From assembly GCA_964461135.1 (NCBI GenBank), contig CAYWTB010000004.1:53385-117384 (forward strand): a DNA stretch of 64,000 nucleotides, in the 5' to 3' direction. This stretch comes from an uncultured Caldithrix sp. (GTDB lineage Bacteria; Calditrichota; Calditrichia; RBG-13-44-9). Below the pieces are notes generated by a model that was not told where the DNA came from, did not search any database, and saw nothing but the letters and a program-made list of their open reading frames with translations. The translations under genes and the position numbers were made by a program. Below, one piece after another: positions 17,078 through 26,695 of this stretch. The stretch's first letter is position 1, and each line of letters begins with the position of its first letter.

Positions 17078-18250
17078 TTAAATCTTATTTAACACACCGT
17101 CCAGGTCATCGATAAGATCCTGTACATGTTCAACCCCAACTGACAACCTTACCAGTCCCGGCGTAATGTGAGCTTCCTTCAGTGCATCTTTACTCATTCC
17201 GGCGTGGGTCATGGAGGCGGGATGCTGAATAAGCGTGTCACAGTCTCCCAGACTCACCGCCAGAGTACACAACGCCACATGATCCATCAGGTATTTTCCG
17301 GCATCAAAGCCGCCTTTCAATTCAAAAGATATGATTCCTCCCCCGCCGCTTTGCTGCCTCCTGGCCAGTTCGAATTGAGGATGGGATTCCAGAAACGGAT
17401 AATAAACTCTTCCAACGGTCGGATGCTTCTCCAGCCACCGGGCAATAGTCAGCGCATTTTCCTGACTTTTTTCCACCCGCAGTGCCATGGTCTTTAATCC
17501 CCTCAGCAGCAGCCAGGCGTTAAAAGGGGACATTGTCCAGCCATAATGAGTTGAAATTTTAAAGGCGCGTTTAATAAAATCCCGCTCACCGACCACAATA
17601 CCAGCCACCACATCTCCATGTCCGCTGATATATTTGGTGGCAGAGTGCAGAACAATGTCGGCACCAAAATCCCTGGGACGCTGATATAAGGGAGTCAAAA
17701 ATGTGTTATCCACACAGACCAGTGCATTACCGGTATGCGCGATATCTACCACAGCGGCAATATCGATGAGTTTAAGGGTAGGATTGGCCGGGGTTTCAAT
17801 GAGGATAAGGGTGGTATTCTTCCGCATGGCCTCTTCCACTTTCTCAAGGCTGGAAGCATCTACCCGGCTCACCTCTATGCCGATATTTTTGATCTCATCT
17901 TCCAGAAGATAATGAGTTCCGCCGTACACCGTATCATCCACAATAATGTGATCACCGGCTCTGGCGGTGGCAAAGACCACGTTGGCTACGGCCGCCATGC
18001 CTGAGCTGGTGGTCATTCCTGCCTCATAACCTTCCAGAAGTGCCATTTTTTTACCCAGTACATCCGCATTAGGATTCCCGAGGCGGGAATAGATATAACC
18101 CGGTTCCTGGCCTTTGAAACGACGGGCACCCTGTTCGGAATTTTTAAACACAAAGGTGGAGGTCTGGTAAATTGGCATGGACAACGCACCAGTATGCGGA
18201 TCCGACTGCTCTACTCCATGGACAATCTCGGTCTCCATGCGGTATTTCAT
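17078..18250 (-). CDS. PLP-dependent Cys/Met-metabolism enzyme (methionine gamma-lyase or cystathionine gamma-synthase family).
   Basis: 390 aa. N-terminal ETEIVHGV...PIYQTSTFVF and the YSRLGNPN motif are present. SATKYISGHGD contains the PLP-binding lysine. Confidence 0.8.
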   Translation of the reverse strand: MKYRMETEIVHGVEQSDPHTGALSMPIYQTSTFVFKNSEQGARRFKGQEPGYIYSRLGNPNADVLGKKMALLEGYEAGMTTSSGMAAVANVVFATARAGDHIIVDDTVYGGTHYLLEDEIKNIGIEVSRVDASSLEKVEEAMRKNTTLILIETPANPTLKLIDIAAVVDIAHTGNALVCVDNTFLTPLYQRPRDFGADIVLHSATKYISGHGDVVAGIVVGERDFIKRAFKISTHYGWTMSPFNAWLLLRGLKTMALRVEKSQENALTIARWLEKHPTVGRVYYPFLESHPQFELARRQQSGGGGIISFELKGGFDAGKYLMDHVALCTLAVSLGDCDTLIQHPASMTHAGMSKDALKEAHITPGLVRLSVGVEHVQDLIDDLDGVLNKI

Positions 18251-18387: not shown

Positions 18388-18837
18388 TTATTTATTGCCG
18401 GGATTTCCTTTGTGTTTCCGGTAAAGCTTTCTCAACCCGATGGCGGATTCCTTCCCGTCACAGATTCCATCTCCATCCGTATCAATGAATCTGTCCCGGG
18501 GAGGATTTTTCCCTTTGCGATAACCCTTTCCCCCCTGTTCCAGATGGTCATCAATACCATTGCCATTAGCATCGACAAAGCCTTCCAAGGGCTGTTCAGT
18601 TCCAGCCGGCTCTACCCCCTGCTGCTGGCCTTCCGGATTCTGCTGATCTTTCTGAACCTGTTCCCTTTCCTGTGCCTGTTTCTGCTTTTGTTCGCCGGTC
18701 TTTTTTTGTTGTTGCTCGGTCGACTTTGTCTTTACCTGCTCTTTTTTCTTTTCCGTTTTTGTGGAATCCGCATTCTGTCCCACAACACCTGATATTCCAA
18801 TGAACAGGCTCAGAATGATAATATAATAGTTTTTCAT
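18388..18837 (-). CDS. Secreted Q/K/E-rich low-complexity protein with two DxDxDG calcium-binding-like loops (paralog 1 of 3).
   Basis: Signal peptide MKNYYIIILSLFIGISGVVGQ, followed by KTEKKKEQVKTKSTEQQQKKTGEQKQKQAQEREQVQKDQQ. Loops are FVDANGNGIDDHLE and FIDTDGDGICDGKE. A 4-nt gap separates it from the upstream gene. Confidence 0.6.
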   Translation of the reverse strand: MKNYYIIILSLFIGISGVVGQNADSTKTEKKKEQVKTKSTEQQQKKTGEQKQKQAQEREQVQKDQQNPEGQQQGVEPAGTEQPLEGFVDANGNGIDDHLEQGGKGYRKGKNPPRDRFIDTDGDGICDGKESAIGLRKLYRKHKGNPGNK

Positions 18838-18841
18838 GGCT

Positions 18842-19678
18842 TTACTCCTCCGAAGAAATTTTTTCTCCCTTAATGACAGATATTATATCTACCGGAAGAA
18901 TATCATTTTGTTCGGCGATGTCTTTAATAAATTCATCTTTATTATATATTATTTTATGATTATCCAGTCTTTTTAAAGTTACCTGAACAGGGATTCCCAG
19001 TTCCGCCGCCACTTCTTCCACGGTTTTTCTACCATAACCGGTATACAGAGTTTTTTTGGCGTCATTATCGGAAACTCTCTGTATCAATTCGCTGGGAGAC
19101 GTATTATTCATCTCTGCCAGCTCCTCAATTGTGGTCGTGGAATCAACATGCTGAATCCCTTCATGTTTCAGGCTTTGCAAAAGATTCTCCATATTGGTGC
19201 CGGTTTTCTGAGCATATTGAGACAGGGTAAGCAGTTCCGCATGAGGAATGGGTGGTTCGCTTGACGGATTGCTCCAGGAATTGCTCAGATATTCTCCAAA
19301 ATCCATTACAGTCTGAAAGGGGGGAACCTGCAGAATCATTAGAACCAGTATGGTTACAGTCAAGAATGAAGATAAGGCCAGTTCCTGCTTCATTTTAATA
19401 CCCGCCTGGAGTTTCGATTTCAGATAGCTCCAGAAAACTATCCAGTTATAATATAAATGAAATGCACCCACGATGATAAATGCCAGGGCAAAAACAGTAT
19501 GGACAGCCTGCCAGCCGGTTTTGGTTAATCCCATAAACCTCCAGATCACCCAGTTTGCTACCCGTCCTGGAGGTGAGAAATAAAGAACTATACCGGTAAG
19601 AATTAAAATCAGCCAGGCGAAAACCACCATAAAACTGAAAAACGCTTTCCTATTGAATTTAGCCGGACGCATCATCAT
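18842..19678 (-). CDS. Inner-membrane protein with an N-terminal 4-TM DUF4405-like domain (conserved His in helices) and a C-terminal soluble helical domain.
   Basis: N-terminal hydrophobic helices with AVHTVFALAFIIVGAFHLYYNW. The C-terminal ~140 aa is hydrophilic. The family assignment is from memory and was not verified. Confidence 0.5.
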   Translation of the reverse strand: MMMRPAKFNRKAFFSFMVVFAWLILILTGIVLYFSPPGRVANWVIWRFMGLTKTGWQAVHTVFALAFIIVGAFHLYYNWIVFWSYLKSKLQAGIKMKQELALSSFLTVTILVLMILQVPPFQTVMDFGEYLSNSWSNPSSEPPIPHAELLTLSQYAQKTGTNMENLLQSLKHEGIQHVDSTTTIEELAEMNNTSPSELIQRVSDNDAKKTLYTGYGRKTVEEVAAELGIPVQVTLKRLDNHKIIYNKDEFIKDIAEQNDILPVDIISVIKGEKISSEE

Positions 19679-19686
19679 TCTACCTC

Positions 19687-20895
19687 TTACATATCCAGTT
19701 GCAGTCCCAGCGAAACAAACTGGCTGTCATAATTATACCAGTAGCTGTTGGAGCTGTTATTCATCCATTGATAATTCATCTGCAGAGCCAGGCTGGTGGA
19801 TGCCGTCAGTGGCAGATCCAAACGCTTTTCCAAGGTAATCCGGAACGTTCTGAGCGTATCTTTACGAAGAACCGTTTCATCAAAGTTTTCCGCATCCACA
19901 TAAATACCCTGCATCACATAGTTCTTCCGGTGATAATACCCGGCCAGCCTGGCGGACATTCTGAAAGGAAGCAGTTGAGTCAGTTCCACTCCAAATATTT
20001 GCGCTTCATAACCCATCATATCATCAAAAATCTGTGACTCAGTGGCATACCCGGGAAGCAGGCCGGCAATATTACGGTCATAGTTTAACAGATTAATGCG
20101 CTGATGATATTGAAATGCAAGGCCGCTGTATTTCATAAGCGACTGCGCCATACGCAGTGACAACACAATCTGCGCAGACGATGGTGTTTCTCCGGAAGAC
20201 GAATAGATGTAATATCCACTTCCGGGGCCATGATCATTGCCCGGACCACCTCCACCCTGTTCCACGCTGCTCACGGACTGCAGAATTCCCATAGATGAAT
20301 CTGCGGGAAGCGCAGGCGAAACCTCGGGTTCCAGGTAATATTTATAATTAAACGTGACTGCCCCGATAATGGTTGATCGCATCGGAAAGGATCGGTGTAA
20401 TGAGGTATAAGCACTTAAAAGAATATTGTTCAGATTTGTTAACTGCAGGAAGCGGTTCATTGACCCATTGGCTCCTAATCGCCAGGTGAAATTGTCTACC
20501 TGTTCGTTATGGTTAAAACCGGCACGCAAAGTTATGTAATCATAAAGATTATATTCCGGACGATCGATTCTGTTTTCCGCAGAAATACTCCAGCTGGTTT
20601 TCTCTCCACCTCCCAGATGAAACTGGTGCCAGTATAGATTCCGGCCGGGATTCTGGTAGTAGTTCATGAAACTTCCGTAGTACTGCATGGATACTTTCTC
20701 CCAGTCTTTCTGGAACCCCATGGCAATTCGTGTAATCTGATCCTCCTGGGATTCAGGATATCCGAATGGATTGGAATTATATTCCTGTTCCAGGTAGAGT
20801 GAATAATACCACTGGCCGTATGCAGAACAGACGGTTAAAATTAAAGTAAAAATGATGAGAGCGGGTATGAAGATGATGTTTTTACTTCCGTCCAT
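19687..20895 (-). CDS. Putative outer-membrane beta-barrel protein (porin-like).
   Basis: Signal peptide MDGSKNIIFIPALIIFTLILTVCSAYGQ. The body shows alternating aromatic/hydrophilic beta-strand patterns rich in Y/N/S/G, and the C-terminus is ...YNYDSQFVSLGLQLDM. No recognizable enzyme motifs. Confidence 0.45.
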   Translation of the reverse strand: MDGSKNIIFIPALIIFTLILTVCSAYGQWYYSLYLEQEYNSNPFGYPESQEDQITRIAMGFQKDWEKVSMQYYGSFMNYYQNPGRNLYWHQFHLGGGEKTSWSISAENRIDRPEYNLYDYITLRAGFNHNEQVDNFTWRLGANGSMNRFLQLTNLNNILLSAYTSLHRSFPMRSTIIGAVTFNYKYYLEPEVSPALPADSSMGILQSVSSVEQGGGGPGNDHGPGSGYYIYSSSGETPSSAQIVLSLRMAQSLMKYSGLAFQYHQRINLLNYDRNIAGLLPGYATESQIFDDMMGYEAQIFGVELTQLLPFRMSARLAGYYHRKNYVMQGIYVDAENFDETVLRKDTLRTFRITLEKRLDLPLTASTSLALQMNYQWMNNSSNSYWYNYDSQFVSLGLQLDM

Positions 20896-20920
20896 TTTTT
20901 AACCTCTTTCGAATAATATG

Positions 20921-20950
20921 CAGCGCTCTTCCTTTATGGGAAGAGCGCTT
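20921..20950 (-). terminator. Intra-operon hairpin or attenuator between paralog 2 and the beta-barrel gene.
   Basis: AGCGCTCTTCC tttat GGGAAGAGCGCT: an 11-bp perfect stem. On the minus-strand RNA it is followed by CAUAUUAUUCG, which is only moderately U-rich. Confidence 0.35.
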
Positions 20951-20967
20951 TTCACCCTGCCCGGATG

Positions 20968-21504
20968 TCATCTACGTGGACCTCTGTTTGTTTTTCCTTT
21001 TGGTCCGGTTCCGTCACAATTTCCTGAAGCCGCTCCGGTTCCATACCCCATTCCGTTCTGAGGGCAGACACCCCGGTTACCGGTGCCATCACCGGGACCA
21101 TAACCACCCCTGCGGGTTTTATGTATGGCAGAGGCTTTTCCTTGGCCCTGATTCATATTATCGGCTATACCATCACCGTCTGTATCCACAAACTGCTGCT
21201 GGCGTTTACCCTTACCGGCTCCCTGGTAATCGGGATCCTGGCCGTTGGGAATACCATCCTTGTCATGATCCGGCGCGTTATCATTAAAACCATCGCCGTT
21301 CTTATCAACAAAGTTCGGTCCGTGGATTACCCGGTTCTGCTCAGTGTTTTGAGTAGTTCCCTGGTTCTGATTCTGATCCTTCAGCTGGAGTTCCTGATTT
21401 GTTTTTTCTTTCTGCTTGCTGGAATTGTCCTGGGCCCTGCTGATCCCTGCGGTCAGAGACAGGGACAGAAATACAACGAAAACGAACAGATATAACCTTT
21501 TCAT
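20968..21504 (-). CDS. Secreted Q/N-rich low-complexity protein with DxDxDG loops and a Gly-rich GYGPGDGTGN tail (paralog 2 of 3).
   Basis: Signal peptide MKRLYLFVFVVFLSLSLTAGISRAQ. Loops are FVDKNGDGFNDNAPDHDKDGIPNGQDPD and FVDTDGDGIADN. The tail is RGGYGPGDGTGNRGV...GYGTGAASGNCDGTGPKG. Confidence 0.6.
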   Translation of the reverse strand: MKRLYLFVFVVFLSLSLTAGISRAQDNSSKQKEKTNQELQLKDQNQNQGTTQNTEQNRVIHGPNFVDKNGDGFNDNAPDHDKDGIPNGQDPDYQGAGKGKRQQQFVDTDGDGIADNMNQGQGKASAIHKTRRGGYGPGDGTGNRGVCPQNGMGYGTGAASGNCDGTGPKGKTNRGPRR

Positions 21505-21562
21505 TTTTTATTCTCCTTATTATGTTTTGTTATCAGGTTTTCGTTCATTTGTTATATTTCTT

Positions 21563-21579
21563 TACAAACCTCGTGCCAG
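21563..21579 (-). promoter_or_regulatory. Candidate sigma-54 (-24/-12) promoter for paralog 2.
   Basis: The minus strand reads cc TGGCACG aggt TTGTA aa (GG at -24; TTGT rather than TTGC at -12). The -12 element lies about 62 nt upstream of the start codon at 21504, adjacent to a sigma-54 activator gene. Confidence 0.45.
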
Positions 21580-22117
21580 GATTAGTAATAATTTTTAAGT
21601 TTATAATAATAATAGACTTGTAAATTTTATTAACCTGACGTCGGAGACTTGTCTTCGCCCGGTTGGTCGTATAAATCGACCTGCCAGTCGATACCCAAGT
21701 GTTCGGGTCAATTTTCTGATAAATTCCGCCTGAAAATAGGATTCTTCGCATTAATACGTGACTGCTAAACTTACCTGATCTCCTGAGAAAACATGTCAGC
21801 GCTGCCTGCTGTCAGGCAGGTACGCGGTGGTTTTGGCATTTCGACTCTTAACGATCCTTTACACCTCCCACCCTAAGTGGTTGGGTTAGTAATGAATTAA
21901 AGAAAACCTTGCTCAATTACTAATCCCGGCAGGGATGAAATGTTTAAAGAAAAGATAGAATCGAAAGACATGAACTCTGCAGGAGTGATATATGAAATCC
22001 TTTCAGAATATTTTGTTTGGGTATTCATTATTATGAAGTACCGAAAATATGAAACTAACAGATAACTATACTTACATGATATAACACTGTTTCGCTATAA
22101 TTCAGTACTGGAATTAC

Positions 22118-23482
22118 CTACTTTAATCCCAGTTTTTCCAGCCGTGAGCGGAGGTGTCTCTCCGTTATTCCCAACAGGCGCGCCGCTGCACTTTGATTTC
22201 CCCGTGTCTGTTCCAGGGCTGAACCAATCATCTCCTTTTCAAAGGCCCGCACTTTGTCTTCATAACCATCCCCATAATTATAGGGATCCAGTACCTTTTT
22301 TTCGGTTGGCGGCTGAGTATGGCCCGGCAGGTCCGTCATGGAAATGATATTGGTGCGACTAAGAACCACTGCCCGTTCCAGAATATTTTCCAGTTCCCGG
22401 ACATTTCCGGGAAAATCATATTTCATCAGACGGTCCAGGGCCTCACCCGATATGCCCTTCATTTCCTTCTGATTTTCGCTGCTGTATTTGTTTATAAAAT
22501 GTTCGGCCAGAACCGGAATATCCGTTTTTCGCTGGCGAAGAGGCGGCACAAAAATAGTGACCACATTCAGACGGTAATACAGATCATCCCTGAATTCACC
22601 CAGGTGCATCTTATCTTCCAGCTGGCGATGGGTGGCGGCAATAATGCGGACGTCCACTTTGATAGGGGCCGAGCTTCCAACCCGTTCTATTTCACCAAAT
22701 TGTATGGCCCGCAACAGTTTTATTTGGATAGGAAGAGGAATATCACCTACTTCATCGATGAAAAGGGTACCGCCATTCGCCTGCTCAAAACGCCCGATCC
22801 GCTGTTGTGAAGCACCGGTGAAAGCCCCTTTTTCGTGCCCGAAAAGTTCCGATTCAATTAAATTCTCCGATAACGCCGCTATATTTACAACCACAAACGG
22901 TTTGTCCTTACGAGGACTGGAGTAATGAATAGCCCTGGCAATCAGCTCTTTTCCGGTACCGCTTTCTCCGCGGATAAGCACCGAAGCTTTACTGTTGGCC
23001 ACCCTGCCGGCAGTATTAAGGACATTCTCCATCTCCCCGCTTTGAGAAATGATAGACTCAAACTTAAATTTCGCTTCCAGTTGCTCGCGGAGTTGCTTGT
23101 TTTCTTCCATCAACAGCCGTTTTTCTTTGACCCTCTCAATCAGGTTTTCCAGTTCATTCAGATCTATTGGTTTGCTGAGATAATCATATGCGCCTGCTTT
23201 CATTAATTCCACTGCATCTTCAATACTCCCGTACGCGGTTATCACTACCACATCGATTTCAGGATTTAATTCCTTTATTTTGCGTAAAACCACCAGTCCG
23301 TTCCAACCCGGCATGCGGTAATCAGTAAGTACCAGATCTATAAAATGTTTCCGGGCTATCTTAAACCCCTCTTCACCATTAACTGCAGTATATACCTGAT
23401 AATCCCGGCGTTCCAGGTAGCTTTTCAGGGCTTTCAGCTGCGTTTCCTCGTCATCGATTAATAGCAAGGTAAAAGGTCTCAT
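22118..23482 (-). CDS. Sigma-54-dependent response regulator (NtrC/ZraR/AtoC family): REC, AAA+ sigma-54 interaction domain and Fis-type HTH.
   Basis: The receiver region is MRPFTLLLIDDEE...DLVLTDYRMPGWNG. GESGTGKELIARAIHYSS is the Walker A, and the GAFTGA motif is present as EKGAFTGA. The C-terminal HTH is QSAAARLLGITERHLRSRLEKLGL. Confidence 0.9.
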   Translation of the reverse strand: MRPFTLLLIDDEETQLKALKSYLERRDYQVYTAVNGEEGFKIARKHFIDLVLTDYRMPGWNGLVVLRKIKELNPEIDVVVITAYGSIEDAVELMKAGAYDYLSKPIDLNELENLIERVKEKRLLMEENKQLREQLEAKFKFESIISQSGEMENVLNTAGRVANSKASVLIRGESGTGKELIARAIHYSSPRKDKPFVVVNIAALSENLIESELFGHEKGAFTGASQQRIGRFEQANGGTLFIDEVGDIPLPIQIKLLRAIQFGEIERVGSSAPIKVDVRIIAATHRQLEDKMHLGEFRDDLYYRLNVVTIFVPPLRQRKTDIPVLAEHFINKYSSENQKEMKGISGEALDRLMKYDFPGNVRELENILERAVVLSRTNIISMTDLPGHTQPPTEKKVLDPYNYGDGYEDKVRAFEKEMIGSALEQTRGNQSAAARLLGITERHLRSRLEKLGLK

Positions 23483-23581
23483 CTGGTGTTTCCTGTTTTT
23501 CTTCAGTTTTATTGATTTAAACCGGCTTTTATCGATATTTATGTTTAGCTGTTTTGTTATTTTCCTGCCGTTTATTCCGTC

Positions 23582-25624
23582 TTAATTTCTGATTCCGTTT
23601 AAGATTTTCCCGGGTATTTGTATGGAAAATTGTGTTCCCTGTCCTTCCCTGCTTTCCAGGAAAATAGTGCCATTGTGTTGATCAACAATTTGCTGAACAA
23701 TACTTAACCCGATGCCGGTTCCGCTATCTTTGGTGGTGAAATAAATATTGAATATTTTTTTCTGTATATCTTCCGGGATTCCCGGACCATCATCAGCCAC
23801 ATTCATTTCAATGAAGTCCCTTTTTGTTTTTCTGATGTGGATATCGATGCGTCCACCGGAATTCAAGGCCTCCATGGCATTCTGAATCAGGTTTGTGAAA
23901 ACCTGTTTCATTTTGCGGCGGTCCCATTCCACCGTTTCCGACCACTCCGAATCTATGTGAAGACTGATATTCTTTGTTTCCAGTAATGGCTGATATTGTT
24001 TTTGCAATTCGTCGAAAAAATCCTGCAGCGAAAAAACCTCTGTTTGCAACGGCTCAGGCCGGGCAAATCTCAGGAAATTTTCTATGGTTTGGTTAATCCG
24101 TTTCACTTCATTATAGACCATGCGGGAAAGTTGATGATATTCGTCCTGTTGCCGGCGAGGTTCAAAATCCCTGTCCAGTTGCTGGATGACGGTTCCGATG
24201 GCATTGAGGGGGTTACGTATCTCATGAGCCACACCGGATGCCAGCTGGCCCAGTGCTGTTAACCGTTCCCGTCTCTGAATCTGCCCTTCCAGCCGTTTCT
24301 GATCGGTCAGATCCCGTGCCACCAGAATATATACCAGCTGATTATTCTCATCCGTATAATGACTCTTTGACATTAAAATATGCCTGGTTTTTCCTTTAAT
24401 TGTCATCGGAAACTCCTGCATGCTGAAGCGATCATCCAGGATATGTAGCCAGTTCATGCCAGGGAAAACGCTCCTGATTTCCTTTCCCACCACTTCATCA
24501 GCTTTTAGTTCGAATAATTTTTCGGCGGATTGATTGACGATTCTGATTTTCTCTCCCGATTCGAAGACAATAATCGCATCACTCACGTTTTGGATAATAT
24601 TGCGGGAATAGGTTTCCACAGACTGGTACTGTTTCCGGGTAAAATCGAGATTTTGCCTCATCATTATGAAAGTGAACATGAAAAAACCGATTACCAGCAG
24701 CAGAAGGCTGATGATTGTGATGCGGCGATATATACGGCTGTTGATCACAGTAAGAGGTGCCATTGAAATACCCAGCCTGAATATGCCGACCGGCTCTCCC
24801 TGATAGTTGAAAGAATGAACGGCTTCAAAAACTTCCTGCCCTTTAAAATCAAGGGTACGAACACGTAAAACGGAGTCAGATAAAGCTTTACTGAGAAACG
24901 GTGAAGTATTAATCCGTTCCAGGTCCACTATATTTCCGGAGGCGGCGAGAATGCCGGAGGTATCCTGAATGGCTGCATACAGGATTCCGGGATTCCCGCT
25001 AAGGCTTTGAAGAAGGCTGCCAATCCCCACCTCCTTGCGAAATTCCAGCAGCTGCGCCGCATTCAGGTTAACGACTATGGCACTTTGGGCTTTTCCGGCC
25101 ACCGCCACTGCATAGCGGAAGCCCTTTTCATAGCGTGCCGCCTTTAATCCCAGCAACAAAGTATCCGTCTTTCCGGTGAATATGGGTGTTAAAATGTCTT
25201 CCGGTTCATTCCCGGATTCGGAATAATTGTGTATCTGCTGATGACTGCTGTATATCTTTTTTCCATCGGGTGTAAAAATATTTATCCTGTACAGATTATT
25301 TTCGCGGGCAAACTTCTGCAGGAAGGCATTACTGACCCGACCTTTGTTATAGAGATCTTTTACCATATTGGCATTATTTAAAAGTCTTTCATCAATAAGC
25401 TCTTCAATCAACATATTTGTCATCAGCGTATTGCGGGAGGCACTGATGACTGTTTCCGATAAAGTATGTGCCTGTTCAGTCATGAGTTCAACCAGCTCTT
25501 TCTTGCTCTGGCGTAATTCTATAATAGCCGAACTGATCATCAGGGCTGCCAGTACCAGGAATATGAATAACAAATTTTTAGGACGTATGAACTGTGCCTG
25601 TCTGAAGATTCTTTTCATGATCAT
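23582..25624 (-). CDS. Membrane sensor histidine kinase: two TM helices flanking a ~270-aa periplasmic domain, then PAS, HisKA and HATPase_c.
   Basis: TM1 is LLFIFLVLAALMISSAII and TM2 is ITIISLLLLVIGFFMFTFIMM. The H-box is GVAHEIRNPLNAI, and the ATPase region contains DDGPGIPEDI...GTGIGLSIV. Confidence 0.85.
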   Translation of the reverse strand: MIMKRIFRQAQFIRPKNLLFIFLVLAALMISSAIIELRQSKKELVELMTEQAHTLSETVISASRNTLMTNMLIEELIDERLLNNANMVKDLYNKGRVSNAFLQKFARENNLYRINIFTPDGKKIYSSHQQIHNYSESGNEPEDILTPIFTGKTDTLLLGLKAARYEKGFRYAVAVAGKAQSAIVVNLNAAQLLEFRKEVGIGSLLQSLSGNPGILYAAIQDTSGILAASGNIVDLERINTSPFLSKALSDSVLRVRTLDFKGQEVFEAVHSFNYQGEPVGIFRLGISMAPLTVINSRIYRRITIISLLLLVIGFFMFTFIMMRQNLDFTRKQYQSVETYSRNIIQNVSDAIIVFESGEKIRIVNQSAEKLFELKADEVVGKEIRSVFPGMNWLHILDDRFSMQEFPMTIKGKTRHILMSKSHYTDENNQLVYILVARDLTDQKRLEGQIQRRERLTALGQLASGVAHEIRNPLNAIGTVIQQLDRDFEPRRQQDEYHQLSRMVYNEVKRINQTIENFLRFARPEPLQTEVFSLQDFFDELQKQYQPLLETKNISLHIDSEWSETVEWDRRKMKQVFTNLIQNAMEALNSGGRIDIHIRKTKRDFIEMNVADDGPGIPEDIQKKIFNIYFTTKDSGTGIGLSIVQQIVDQHNGTIFLESREGQGTQFSIQIPGKILNGIRN

Positions 25625-25736
25625 AAATTACATTATCCATTTATGCAGGGCAAGATTTCAATAAAGTCTGAAGTGATTTCATACCTGTATCGAACAGTCG
25701 TCTTAACTTCAATACTAAAATTGAATTATTAAATGG

Positions 25737-25768
25737 TAAAAAGCCTCCGTAACGACAGGAGGCTTTTA
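25737..25768 (-). terminator. Rho-independent terminator after paralog 3.
   Basis: Plus strand reads aaAGCCTCCgtaacgacaGGAGGCTtttacc. On the minus-strand RNA the stem GCCUCC/GGAGGC is followed by UUUUUACCAUUU. Confidence 0.5.
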
Positions 25769-25796
25769 CCTGGAGGCATTTATGTAGATGGGTCAT

Positions 25797-26426
25797 TTAT
25801 TTCCCGCCGGTGGATCCGCCATTGCGATTCTGGGTTTTGGAACCGCCTGAAGGGGTACCACTACCCAGACCATAACCGGTACCATCCTTCGGTCCTACAC
25901 CCTGGTTACCGGTGCCGTCACCGGGTCCGTATCCGCCTTTTCTGGTACCCTGGGTGGAACCCGGACCATAGCCGGTTTCATCCTTGGGACCAACGCCCTG
26001 GTTGCCGGTGCCATCTCCGGGACCATAGTGCCCGGCTGCATTATCATTGCCCTTCAGCGAACGGAGTTGAAAGCGGTCATCTATTCCGTCGCCATTCATA
26101 TCCCGGAACTGGAAACGGTATTCAAAACGATTCTGGAACATGTTCTGACTCATGGAGGCTGCCCCGGACTGGTTTTTTATCCGGATCTGGTTGCTGGTGC
26201 TTGATTGCAGCTTGTTCTGATATTGGGTCTGATTCTGCTGCTGCACTTTCGGCTGGTCCTGTGCCTGATTTTTTGTCTGATTCTGGACCTGGTTGTGAAG
26301 CTGTGCTTTGGTTTGGGTCTTCGCCTGGGTCTTGGTTCTTGTTTTCAGTGAGTCCTGTGCAAATGCCTGCAGACTGAAAGCAAGGGTTAATCCCAGGATC
26401 AGAGTGAATTGAGAGATGCGTTTCAT
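25797..26426 (-). CDS. Secreted Q/N/T/K-rich low-complexity protein with a DxDxDG loop and tandem GYGPGDGTGNQGVGPKD repeats (paralog 3 of 3).
   Basis: The likely true start is MKRISQFTLILGLTLAFSLQAFAQ at 26426, preceded by aaGGAGGaagtatc ATG. The loop is FRDMNGDGIDDRF. The repeat tail is HYGPGDGTGNQGVGPKDETGYGPGS...GGYGPGDGTGNQGVGPKDGTGYGLGSG. Confidence 0.6.
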   Translation of the reverse strand: MKRISQFTLILGLTLAFSLQAFAQDSLKTRTKTQAKTQTKAQLHNQVQNQTKNQAQDQPKVQQQNQTQYQNKLQSSTSNQIRIKNQSGAASMSQNMFQNRFEYRFQFRDMNGDGIDDRFQLRSLKGNDNAAGHYGPGDGTGNQGVGPKDETGYGPGSTQGTRKGGYGPGDGTGNQGVGPKDGTGYGLGSGTPSGGSKTQNRNGGSTGGK

Positions 26427-26475
26427 GATACTTCCTCCTTGGTTAAGGTTTTTGTTGTAACACAACCAATATTGC

Positions 26476-26492
26476 CTCAATTGTCGTGCCAA
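26476..26492 (-). promoter_or_regulatory. Candidate sigma-54 (-24/-12) promoter for paralog 3.
   Basis: The minus strand reads t TGGCACG acaa TTGAG gcaa. The -12 element lies about 52 nt upstream of the start at 26426. It has the same TGGCACG-N4-TTG architecture as the site upstream of paralog 2. Confidence 0.4.
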
Positions 26493-26695
26493 TGGAGAAC
26501 CAGACCTTGCTTATATGATGTTTATATTAGACTTATAACGATGATGTGCAGAGATGAAGGTACTTACTGCTCGACCGGACGGGCGAATTACGCCAACCGG
26601 ATGGGCGGATATTTCGTGGAAGCAGCGTGACGGATAAATTTAAAAATGAGTGCCGGCATCCAGCAACAAAAGATTTCCCTGGCAGAGATGTAATT

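Follow-up and report, generated by a model that had tools for sequence, protein, structure and literature searches.

The locus lies in a 64-kb window, by which we mean the whole stretch of DNA that was analysed, and comprises seven minus-strand genes at positions 18388-26492, in the order P3, kinase, activator, P2, barrel, DUF4405 protein and P1. Gene order, coordinates and strand were all as given in the original prediction, which had been made from the same DNA. The genes from P2 through P1 had been described as contiguous, and this holds with respect to their intergenic gaps of 72, 8 and 4 bp. However, the 72-bp gap between P2 and the barrel gene contains a terminator-like hairpin with an 11-bp stem and a weak T-tail (20922-20949, minus strand), so this part of the locus is not simply contiguous. 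The stand-alone P3 gene is indeed followed by an intrinsic terminator (25735-25770, minus strand), in which a GC-rich hairpin with a dG of -19 kcal/mol (z -3.5) precedes the U-run UUUUU; none of 200 shuffled sequences (0/200) folded as well. A hairpin (z < -2) was present directly 3' of the P gene in 41 of 52 related loci, and this conservation suggests that P is made in excess. The hairpin between P2 and the barrel gene probably acts as a partial terminator, by which P2 would be expressed above the level of the downstream genes.

Sequence comparison confirmed that the three P proteins are paralogous (P2 versus P1, E 6e-10; P2 versus P3, E 1e-7). P2 (20968-21504, minus strand; 178 aa) is the canonical member of the family, with a signal peptide, a Q/N/K-rich linker, a first loop region HGxxFVDxNGDGFNDNAPDHDxDGIPNGQDPDY, a second loop FVDTDGDGIADN, and a GYGPGDGTGN...GNCDGTGPKG tail that leads into a basic C-terminus. 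P3 (25797-26426, minus strand; 209 aa) has a signal peptide, a Q/K/T-rich stretch, a single FRDMNGDGIDD loop and two copies of the repeat GYGPGDGTGNQGVGPKDxTGYG, and is devoid of the conserved Cys. Its start was assigned to the ATG at 26426, which is preceded by AGGAGG, while the listed TTG at 26492 was rejected because it overlaps the P3 promoter. P1 (18388-18837, minus strand; 149 aa) is a short, tail-less paralog with two DxDxDG loops that ends in GICDG and a basic tail, and its orthologues form the operon end in at least 12 Calditrichota/KSB1 loci. Direct reading recovered the loops FVDKNGDGFND, FVDTDGDGIAD, FVDANGNGIDD, FIDTDGDGICD and FRDMNGDGIDD, as well as the GYGPGDGTGN tails in two paralogs, once in P2 and twice in P3. 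The Q/N/K-rich region attributed to the paralogs is visible in P2, with its Q/K/T-rich counterpart in P3, but is not kept across the P family; the conserved parts are the Asp loops together with the DGTG/Cys tail. Most of the P sequence is of low complexity and is probably disordered. The family is covered by no Pfam or NCBIfam model, and the 373 relatives that we found are all 'hypothetical' wherever their source names them, in agreement with the view that the paralogs belong to no characterised family.

The loops underlie a narrower, calcium-specific version of the original prediction, in which Ca2+ would be the signal for the kinase and P, by way of its EF-hand/TSP3-type loops, would serve as a buffer for Ca2+ in the periplasm. 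The DxDxDG loops are real and form the most conserved part of the N-terminal half of P, their alignment to an OmpA-family protein (PDB 5wtl, E 0.007) falls on its Ca-binding TSP3 repeats, and the TSP3_bac model matches P1 with an E of 3e-4. Their likeness to TSP3 is marginal, however: the TSP3 model scored 21 bits where its cut-off is 25, and the TSP3_bac match is likewise under its curated threshold. Moreover, the minimal and tail-only P members retain the DGTG/Cys tail with one loop or none, and iron/redox genes recur in the neighbourhoods, but no Ca transporter or other gene related to Ca does. We consider a role confined to calcium improbable.

Upstream of P2 and P3 we found two exact TGGCACG-N4-TTG sites of the -24/-12 type, 65-74 nt before the start codons, as had been predicted. 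The P2 promoter, TGGCACGAGGTTTG (21565-21578, minus strand), lies 74 nt ahead of the P2 ATG and is kept in orthologous loci, while the P3 promoter, TGGCACGACAATTG (26478-26491, minus strand), lies 65 nt ahead of the P3 ATG. The exact motif occurs three times in the 64 kb, where 0.08 occurrences were expected. The consensus in front of P, TTGGCAC-N5-TTGA, is kept in several phyla, and in three distant loci the sole TGGCAC-N5-TTG within ~20 kb sits 65-91 nt before the P gene. An exact motif was located at most 300 nt upstream of P in 51 of 78 loci, and these 51 sites make up 51/68 of all exact matches in 1.85 Mb searched on both strands; loci without it mostly carry TGGCAY with a degenerate -12 element. 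Two features count against regulation by sigma-54, namely that the -12 element reads TTGA/T where the canonical one is TTGC, and that it is degenerate in Melioribacteraceae. A domain search detected no RpoN box within the window.

Further upstream, about 75-115 nt before the -24/-12 promoters, we recognised a palindrome, TCGAC-N6-GTCGA, that had not been noted before. At one mismatch or fewer it has two matches in the window, one upstream of each of the P2 and P3 promoters, and no others. The site at the P3 promoter, TCGCCCGTCCGGTCGA (minus strand; 26571-26586), has one mismatch and begins 95 nt upstream of TGGCAC, and the one at the P2 promoter, TCGACTGGCAGGTCGA (minus strand; 21676-21691), is an exact match beginning 113 nt upstream. 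With the same tolerance, 42 of 53 orthologous promoter regions have the palindrome, usually at 76-99 nt upstream, against a background of 0.03 per 220 nt, and it is often doubled in tandem with a spacing of 21-22 bp. It occurred 60-130 nt upstream of a TGGCAY in 56 of 77 loci, as compared with 3.9% of random windows. In an Acidobacteriota locus the same arrangement of palindrome and promoter precedes a minimal P gene of 108 aa. A metagenome scan for the combined pattern returned matches directly upstream of genes for P-type, DUF2202, OMP-like and His-rich small proteins, which serve as examples and not as frequencies, since most matches in that scan are chance occurrences inside GC-rich coding DNA. 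We regard the palindrome as a candidate binding site of the activator encoded at the locus.

This activator (22118-23482, minus strand; 454 aa) is an NtrC-family protein with REC, Sigma54_activat (E 1e-71) and Fis-type HTH_8 domains and an intact GAFTGA motif in its AAA+ domain. The adjacent sensor histidine kinase (23582-25624, minus strand; 680 aa) has a ~265-aa periplasmic domain between two transmembrane segments, followed by PAS, HisKA and HATPase domains. Its sensor domain has no Pfam assignment, with ArlS_N matching weakly, and contains no conserved His or Cys; the latter counts against sensing of a metal, as metal sites often have such residues. Assignment of the kinase as a ZraS equivalog was rejected (190.9 bits, cut-off 479), as was that of the activator as a ZraR equivalog (445, cut-off 760), and the AtoS model also scored the kinase under its cut-off. 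The view of the locus as a genuine sigma-54/two-component regulon is supported.

The P family was traced in at least 544 species-level GTDB genomes of Calditrichota, Ignavibacteria, KSB1, Rhodothermia and Acidobacteriota. Of 83 loci compared, 78 contain P, 63 the barrel, 59 the kinase and 57 the activator. Synteny is likewise conserved, P being adjoined by the kinase or activator in 65 of the 83 loci and by the barrel in 63. The module is thus conserved, with its gene content, synteny, promoter, palindrome, terminator, barrel fold and DUF4405 membership directly established, and its arrangement is shared by hundreds of bacteria that have received little study.

The beta-barrel candidate proved to be a 16-stranded outer-membrane barrel of an uncharacterised family (19687-20895, minus strand; 402 aa), with a disordered Gly-rich loop of ~45 aa at residues 193-235 and the invariant motifs ESQIFDD and NxSNSYWY. 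Since P and the barrel form the most constant gene pair (63/83 loci), the barrel could be a dedicated exporter through which P passes after Sec, as in two-partner secretion or curli/Fap, to fold on Ca2+ outside the cell and build a coat, a layer of adhesin or a matrix that nucleates minerals. The predicted excess of P would suit such a role, as would its Gly/Asn/Gln-rich composition with Ca-type loops, reminiscent of substrates that fold only extracellularly. We nevertheless regard dedicated export as quite unlikely, because the barrel lacks both a POTRA domain and a periplasmic partner of the CsgE/F type, neither a TPS domain nor amyloid-type repeats are present in P, and the cytochrome and ferritin-like partners would be left unexplained.

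These partners differ by lineage. In the window, the DUF4405-like membrane protein (18842-19678, minus strand; 278 aa) was verified by its match to PF14358 (E 2e-15); it has three transmembrane helices, in which His60 and His74 are conserved, as well as an invariant EPPIPHAE motif, and its C-terminus carries four small helical repeats. Other DUF4405/FezC proteins bind haem b (PMC11334425). Elsewhere the accessory gene encodes a ferritin-like DUF2202 protein (E 2e-37 to the solved protein MJ0754), a multihaem cytochrome c or, occasionally, FeoAB or VIT1; FeoAB adjoins the P-barrel-DUF4405 trio in Acidobacteriota, and VIT1 adjoins P in Rhodocaloribacter and one Caldithrix MAG. The window itself has no genes for a FezB-type ATPase, Feo, ferritin or DUF2202, nor for a c-type cytochrome. 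DUF4405, DUF2202 or a multihaem cytochrome was present in 45 of the 83 loci, and the other 38 had none of these genes within the compared range, which counts against an iron link, as does the resemblance of the P loops to Ca-binding TSP3 repeats and not to known iron sites. By gene association, the accessory set points to iron or redox metals rather than calcium.

The nature of the partners also bears on a general envelope stress response, in which P, induced by damage, would serve in the periplasm as a disordered holdase or buffer protein comparable in function to ZraP, Spy, CpxP or Asr, possibly with feedback on the kinase, while the barrel and DUF4405 protein would assist in repair and have no particular connection with metals. 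The layout equals that of zraP-zraSR and pspF-pspA, in which a sigma-54 promoter precedes a small, abundant extracytoplasmic or peripheral protein, the terminator after P implies bulk production, the probable disorder of P is as expected, and P3 has a weak compositional match to the Asr model (E 0.002). On the other hand, a domain search of the paralogs yielded no LTXXQ or Metal_resist match, bearing out the claim that P is unrelated to Spy/CpxP/ZraP, and the parts of P that are kept are the loops and tail instead of the Q/K-rich part. The recurring partners, moreover, are redox or ferritin-like proteins and not proteases, chaperones or lipid-repair genes. General envelope stress therefore seems unlikely to us.

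The reading that we prefer, to which we assign about an even chance, is that of a conserved envelope regulon under sigma-54-dependent two-component control that handles a redox-active metal, most likely iron. We infer that the membrane kinase, through its periplasmic sensor domain, responds to such a metal in the envelope and phosphorylates the activator, which would bind the palindromes upstream of the two promoters. It would then turn on P3 as a single-gene unit and, from the P2 promoter, P2 followed across a leaky terminator by the barrel, the DUF4405 protein and P1. The Sec-exported P proteins, presumably in large excess over the other products, would have a stoichiometric role, periplasmic or on the cell surface, as largely disordered cation-binding proteins, in which the cation may be bound by the DxDxDG loops and by the Gly-rich DGTG repeats, together with one conserved Cys. 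The barrel would provide passage across the outer membrane, and the DUF4405 protein, as a putative FezC-like haem-b protein, would carry electrons across the inner membrane, a place that may be taken in other lineages by the ferritin-like DUF2202 protein and multihaem cytochrome.

Several known systems share parts of this module. Ferrosome (fez) loci differ in that no FezB P1B-6 ATPase or FezA was found in the window or examined loci, in that the module's products are exported or outer-membrane proteins, placing it in the envelope and not in a cytoplasmic organelle, and in that sigma-54 control is not reported for fez. The DxDxDGxxD loops of P are spaced like TSP3 repeats, the 5wtl alignment spanning DHDGDGIPNGQD...FVDxNGDGI, but besides the marginal scores P has only one to three loops, its own Gly-rich DGTG tail, and neither an OmpA domain nor a barrel of its own. 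The tails GNCDGTGPKG and GPGDGTGNQG recall DUF5320 (PF17253) at the motif level in GDGTGP, Gly-rich spacing and Cys; membership was rejected, as the tails gave no match with a cut-off as loose as E 10, whereas a test sequence of the DUF5320 type gave 6e-34. DUF5320 proteins are not known to have signal peptides. A likeness in gene content to the porin-cytochrome conduits (Mtr, Pcc, Ext) is seen in Ignavibacteria, where downstream of P come a multihaem cytochrome c, weakly similar to ExtKL and OmcA/MtrC, and an unassigned protein of ~390 aa, in that order, and in Calditrichota, where the barrel adjoins a cytochrome-type membrane protein; the window, however, lacks a c-type cytochrome, and MtrB-type barrels are larger than 16 strands. 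The proposed analogy to ZraPSR, the zinc-responsive envelope-stress system of E. coli and Salmonella, holds for the system logic: a membrane kinase and an NtrC-type activator stand beside the sigma-54 promoter of a small Sec-exported protein, which is abundant or predicted to be so, the Ignavibacteria P gene is oriented divergently to the genes of the kinase and activator, as zraP is to zraSR, and the ZraS and ZraR models score both regulators strongly, if below threshold. In contrast, P is not an LTXXQ protein, the sensor domain of the kinase is larger and unrelated, and the regulon is extended by redox or ferritin-like proteins and by a barrel in the outer membrane. We place the module as a working analogue of ZraPSR and not within that system, and its description as a kind not reported before, although consistent with literature and library searches, is better worded as a new effector set on a familiar regulatory scheme than as a new kind of system.

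The original prediction described seven minus-strand open reading frames (ORFs) in the window, and all of them were found where it had placed them. The kinase gene (23582-25624, minus strand) encodes PAS, HisKA and HATPase domains, and the activator gene (22118-23482, minus strand) encodes REC, a sigma-54 interaction domain and HTH_8 (Pfam scores: PF00072, 3e-30; PF00158, 1e-71; PF02954, 8e-13). Bacterial enhancer-binding proteins of the NtrC family combine REC with an AAA+ sigma-54 interaction domain containing GAFTGA and a C-terminal Fis-type helix-turn-helix. All three elements are present in the activator, which carries GHEKGAFTGA with an intact GAFTGA loop, and this bears out its designation as a sigma-54 activator. 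The small, secreted Gly/Asp-rich proteins P1, P2 and P3 are indeed paralogous (P2 versus P1, E 6e-10; P2 versus P3, E 1e-7). Evident Sec-type signal peptides and DxDxDG loops were read from all three sequences, and the GYGPGDGTGN tails ascribed to two paralogs are those of P2 and P3. P2, the gene for a 402-aa protein, the DUF4405 gene and P1 follow one another with gaps of 72, 8 and 4 bp. P3 starts with the ATG at 26426, which is preceded by AGGAGG, and the TTG at 26492 was rejected as its start; the predicted terminator after P3 is a hairpin with a U-run (dG -19 kcal/mol, z -3.5). As a whole, the original observation was confirmed.

An origin as a mobile element or defence island was rejected, since the flanking genes have housekeeping roles (MutS, RtcB, lipid A acyltransferase, CorC) and PADLOC gave nothing. 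A gene for a Cys/Met-metabolism PLP enzyme (17078-18250, minus strand) lies 137 bp after P1 on the same strand. Four other Calditrichota loci likewise have this gene after the module, which probably reflects lineage synteny rather than membership of the regulon. The spacer between the activator gene and P2 (21692-22117; about 610 bp in all) is unusually long and contained neither a credible ORF nor DNA conserved in the related loci, and a search of the whole window, this spacer included, against Rfam gave no match. At the left end, an ORF of giant size (1-7389, minus strand; 2436 aa or more) runs off the window, and no Pfam domain was detected in it at E <= 1e-5.

Sigma-54 promoters lie ahead of the gene they regulate and consist of a -24 GG and a -12 GC element with the spacing of TGGCAC-N5-TTGC. 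In agreement with the original prediction, both sites upstream of P2 and P3 read TGGCACG-N4-TTG: the P2 promoter TGGCACGAGGTTTG (21565-21578, minus strand) is located 74 nt ahead of the P2 ATG, and the P3 promoter TGGCACGACAATTG (26478-26491, minus strand) 65 nt ahead of the P3 ATG. P2 and P3 are thus each preceded by -24/-12 elements at the correct spacing, with T or A rather than C after the TTG. The exact motif occurs three times in the window, versus 0.08 expected. Among related loci the consensus is TTTTTGGCAC(A/G)-N4-TTGA, and the exact motif was found within 300 nt upstream of P in 51 of 78 testable loci; these 51 make up the larger part of the 68 exact matches on both strands of the 1.85 Mb searched. 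TGGCAC-N5-TTG occurs just once in about 20 kb, 65-91 nt before P, in the loci from Ignavibacteriales, KSB1 and Rhodocaloribacter. Five further loci have TGGCAT instead, and the Melioribacteraceae keep TGGCAY with a degenerate -12 element. No RpoN box was present within the 64 kb window; from the intact GAFTGA of the activator and the conserved -24/-12 sites we infer that the genome encodes rpoN.

The third exact TGGCACG-N4-TTG of the window (62712-62725, minus strand) has no TCGAC-N6-GTCGA nearby and is possibly under a different sigma-54 activator. Downstream of it (62360-62725, minus strand), a short signal-peptide ORF ending in a stop is followed by an 84-aa ORF with a WXXGXW repeat (PF12779, E 6e-12); the two look like pieces of a single gene for a small lipoprotein, interrupted by a frameshift or an error in sequencing.

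Upstream activator sites of the NtrC family are inverted repeats some 80-150 bp from the promoter. Of 53 promoter regions, 42 contained the palindrome TCGAC-N6-GTCGA with at most one mismatch, in most cases 76-99 nt ahead of TGGCAC and often as two copies 21-22 bp apart, against a background of 0.03 per 220 nt. Likewise, 56 of 77 loci had it 60-130 nt upstream of a TGGCAY; the figure for random windows drawn from these loci was 3.9%. Only two copies exist in the whole 64 kb window, one upstream of each P promoter: that at 21676-21691 begins 113 nt upstream of the P2 promoter, and that at 26571-26586 begins 95 nt upstream of the P3 promoter. The position of the palindrome is conserved across phyla, as befits an upstream activator site of this family, and together with the -24/-12 promoter it constitutes the classic geometry of an NtrC-type activator. 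On this arrangement we infer that the window activator would bind the palindrome. In an Acidobacteriota locus, two palindromes 21 bp apart and a TGGCGC-N5-TTGA precede a minimal P gene, and neither a kinase nor an activator gene was called in the 11 kb covered. Overall, we have high confidence in the sigma-54/two-component architecture of regulation.

The 72-bp gap after P2 contains a hairpin with an 11-bp stem. Among 52 related loci, 41 have a short spacer after P whose fold is far more stable than those of its shuffled versions (median z -3.8), the usual form being a GC stem with a T-run behind it. Since this hairpin is conserved, P is probably made in large excess over the downstream genes, which in turn argues for a stoichiometric rather than a catalytic role of P. 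The genes downstream of P are probably expressed by read-through or from a promoter copy of their own; in loci with a long spacer after P, the barrel gene can have a second palindrome ahead of it (L057, L074, L077).

Searches of the paralogs against the Pfam, NCBIfam and PADLOC libraries gave compositional or sub-threshold matches only (PF18884, on P1 only, reached 21 bits with a cut-off of 25), and the proteins match no characterised family. The P consensus comprises a signal peptide, a variable Q/K/T-rich linker, HGxxFVDxNGDGYNDNAPDHDGDGIPNGQDPDY and FVDxNGDGINDN, followed by GYGPxDGTGNxGVxPxDGTGxG, GNCDGTGPKG and a basic end. DxDxDGxxDxxD loops are typical of TSP3 and EF-hand-like calcium-binding repeats, and with the family profile the P loops align marginally with the calcium-binding TSP3 repeats of 5wtl (E 0.0073). 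Minimal and tail-only relatives retain the DGTG repeats and Cys, so that the family appears to have the DGTG/Cys tail as its core. Membership of P in DUF5320 (PF17253) was rejected, the tails having no match at E <= 10 while the positive control gave 6e-34.

P2 has 373 relatives in a protein collection clustered at 90%; every one named by a source is 'hypothetical', and the best 120 listed carry no Pfam domain, with one exception that has an unrelated new accession. Against 1.84 billion cluster representatives the P profile gave 1191 matches at E <= 1e-3, of which 398 reached E <= 1e-10; nearly all have a length of 120-230 aa. A scan of one genome per GTDB species yielded at least 544 encoded relatives, the best 80 of which belong to Calditrichota, Ignavibacteria, KSB1 and metagenome-assembled genomes (MAGs) labelled Bacteroidetes, Cytophagia or Deferribacteres. 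The minimal member from Acidobacteriota has 108 aa.

The synteny across relatives on which the original prediction depended was evident when all ORFs from 83 loci were clustered. The 78 loci with P contain 114 copies of it, which makes paralogs common. A member of the barrel family was found in 63 of the 83 loci, a kinase gene in 59 and an activator gene in 57; a multihaem cytochrome c and DUF2202 occurred in 22 each, a family of about 399 aa without assignment in 20, and DUF4405 in 18. The layout in Calditrichota, KSB1 and Melioribacteraceae is P, barrel, optionally DUF4405 and optionally P1, with kinase and activator genes before or after. In Ignavibacteriaceae, the kinase and activator genes are divergent from an operon of P, DUF2202, multihaem cytochrome and 399-aa protein, and a second pair of small P-like and barrel-like genes lies close by. 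One such pair, in Ignavibacteriales CP065001 (L002, 4894-6363), encodes 118-aa P-like and 364-aa barrel-like proteins, is convergent with the activator gene and additional to the main P, DUF2202 and cytochrome operon, and has no exact TGGCAC-N5-TTG ahead of it. In at least 12 loci the last gene of the operon is a tail-less orthologue of the P1 type. P3, for which no separate orthologue exists, seems to be a lineage-specific duplicate that carries a promoter of its own.

The 402-aa protein combines a signal peptide with a closed antiparallel barrel, as expected of an outer-membrane beta-barrel, and the barrel begins at residue 28, straight after the signal peptide. A Cyc2-type fused cytochrome-porin was rejected because the sequence is without CXXCH. 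The 278-aa DUF4405 protein matches PF14358 with 57.4 bits (cut-off 26.7; E 2e-15) and has the conserved transmembrane His pair of DUF4405/FezC-like proteins, His60 being invariant and His74 at least 90% conserved in 40 sequences. The model contains three transmembrane (TM) helices, with which the protein would need to dimerise, as was proposed for FezC (PMC11334425); binding of haem b by DUF4405 and FezC was shown for two other family members (PMC11334425). An invariant EPPIPHAE after TM3 and four small helical repeats complete an architecture that is kept in 385 relatives, including Acidobacteriota, Chlorobiaceae and Zhuqueibacterota. Neither the DUF4405 family nor the kinase sensor domain had a significant match among PDB sequences, and the sensor domain has no conserved His or Cys.

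An unbiased metagenome scan for the palindrome-plus-promoter pattern returned 83 sites, most of them chance matches in GC-rich coding DNA, and only individually checked loci were used. Apart from the chance matches, the pattern led to eight P genes identified by HMM and to about four Gly-rich proteins of the tail-only type. It also led to an OMP-like gene, a small His-rich protein, two DUF2202 genes placed immediately after the promoter, and a new family of secreted OB-like proteins whose N-terminus has GDGTGP. The ferritin-like DUF2202 genes (L110, 339-971, plus strand; L165, 1914-2894, plus strand) directly follow the palindrome-plus-sigma-54 promoter with no P between, so DUF2202 appears to be a direct regulon member in some organisms. 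The OB-like family (L107, 3165-3638, minus strand; L119, 1612-2184, minus strand; L125, 4083-4940, plus strand) had no Pfam match and lies behind or beside the same promoter. Its members are Gly-rich at the N-terminus (L107 has GDGTGP there) and carry the module ...VTVYGFGPxxYW...GDxVTVxGYxV... in one or two repeats, and their contigs also bear P-tail-like, DUF2202, OMP-like and kinase genes. The His-rich protein (L089, 610-1065, minus strand) is a secreted, Q/M-rich protein of 151 aa with a His-rich C-terminus (HTNHMSHHHTIHHGGHMGR), encoded behind the same promoter architecture; its placement in the ZraP/Spy family was not supported, the only Pfam match being a weak one to DUF1104.

Gene association tentatively argues, with somewhat less than even confidence, that the module handles iron or another redox metal in the envelope. 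This reading is favoured by several neighbours taken together: the haem b of DUF4405/FezC proteins; DUF2202, which in module loci matches the solved MJ0754 protein (E 2e-37); cytochromes, of which that of Ignavibacteria is weakly ExtKL-like and OmcA/MtrC-like, while cytochrome bd follows P and DUF2202 in one Calditrichia locus; FeoAB, which in Acidobacteriota flanks a trio of P, a 412-aa protein in barrel position without a BLAST match to the window barrel, and DUF4405; and VIT1, a flanking gene of P both in Rhodocaloribacter and in one MAG of Caldithrix. Against it stand the sensor domain without conserved His or Cys and the 38 of 83 loci with no iron/redox-type partner within the fetched range. 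For the explanation as a whole, a sigma-54/two-component envelope regulon with an iron/redox-metal role, we consider the chances to be even. It is conceivable, though unlikely, that P, the barrel and the cytochrome or ferritin-like partners form an unrecognised extracytoplasmic iron-handling apparatus, a counterpart of ferrosome-type storage. The Gly-rich DGTG/Cys proteins would then be made in bulk on a sigma-54 signal and would serve, in the periplasm or at the surface, to bind iron or another redox metal or to nucleate it, with a haem-b or multihaem protein supplying the electrons that set its redox state. DGTG would in that case be a new metal-binding or mineral-templating element, echoed in DUF5320 proteins.

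Anoxic sediments and the subsurface harbour abundant Calditrichota, Ignavibacteria, KSB1 and related groups, and to our knowledge almost nothing is known of the environmental sensing of these bacteria. The module provides a complete, portable regulatory unit common to hundreds of species, consisting of the kinase, the NtrC-type activator, a 16-bp palindrome, a -24/-12 promoter and a leaky terminator, and its cis-element can be used for regulon mapping in any genome. Three families without annotation (P, the barrel and the secreted OB-like proteins) gain a common context, one that takes in the ferritin-like and cytochrome proteins familiar otherwise from ferrosome clusters. Testable predictions follow for three cultured organisms, Caldithrix abyssi, Melioribacter roseus and Ignavibacterium album, and if the metal link is true, the module would contribute a new class of envelope metal-handling proteins.

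No description of this system was found among the papers of the library searched. In two-partner secretion (TpsB/Omp85), POTRA lies N-terminal to the barrel and the substrate has a TPS domain, whereas the module has no Pfam match to either and its barrel directly follows the signal peptide. The ferrosome (fez) cluster combines FezB, a P1B-6-type ATPase, with FezA/FezC; in contrast, neither FezB nor any other P-type ATPase occurs in the module or among its recurring neighbours, which share only the accessory DUF4405 and DUF2202 families with fez. The effector of ZraPSR is a periplasmic protein of the Spy/CpxP/ZraP family (LTXXQ) and is induced by Zn2+/Pb2+. The original prediction had likened the module to ZraPSR in layout, with effectors unrelated to ZraP. 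The same logic was indeed found, and P1, P2 and P3 have no LTXXQ or Metal_resist match at E <= 1. The kinase and activator, however, are not ZraS/ZraR equivalogs (NF007688, 190.9 bits versus a cut-off of 479; NF007689, 445.3 versus 760); the AtoS/AtoC models outscore those of ZraS/ZraR on this pair, yet remain below their own cut-offs. The original interpretation is supported in part. The module represents a new and widely conserved variation on sigma-54/two-component control of the envelope; its cis-code is defined, and its effector families are uncharacterised.
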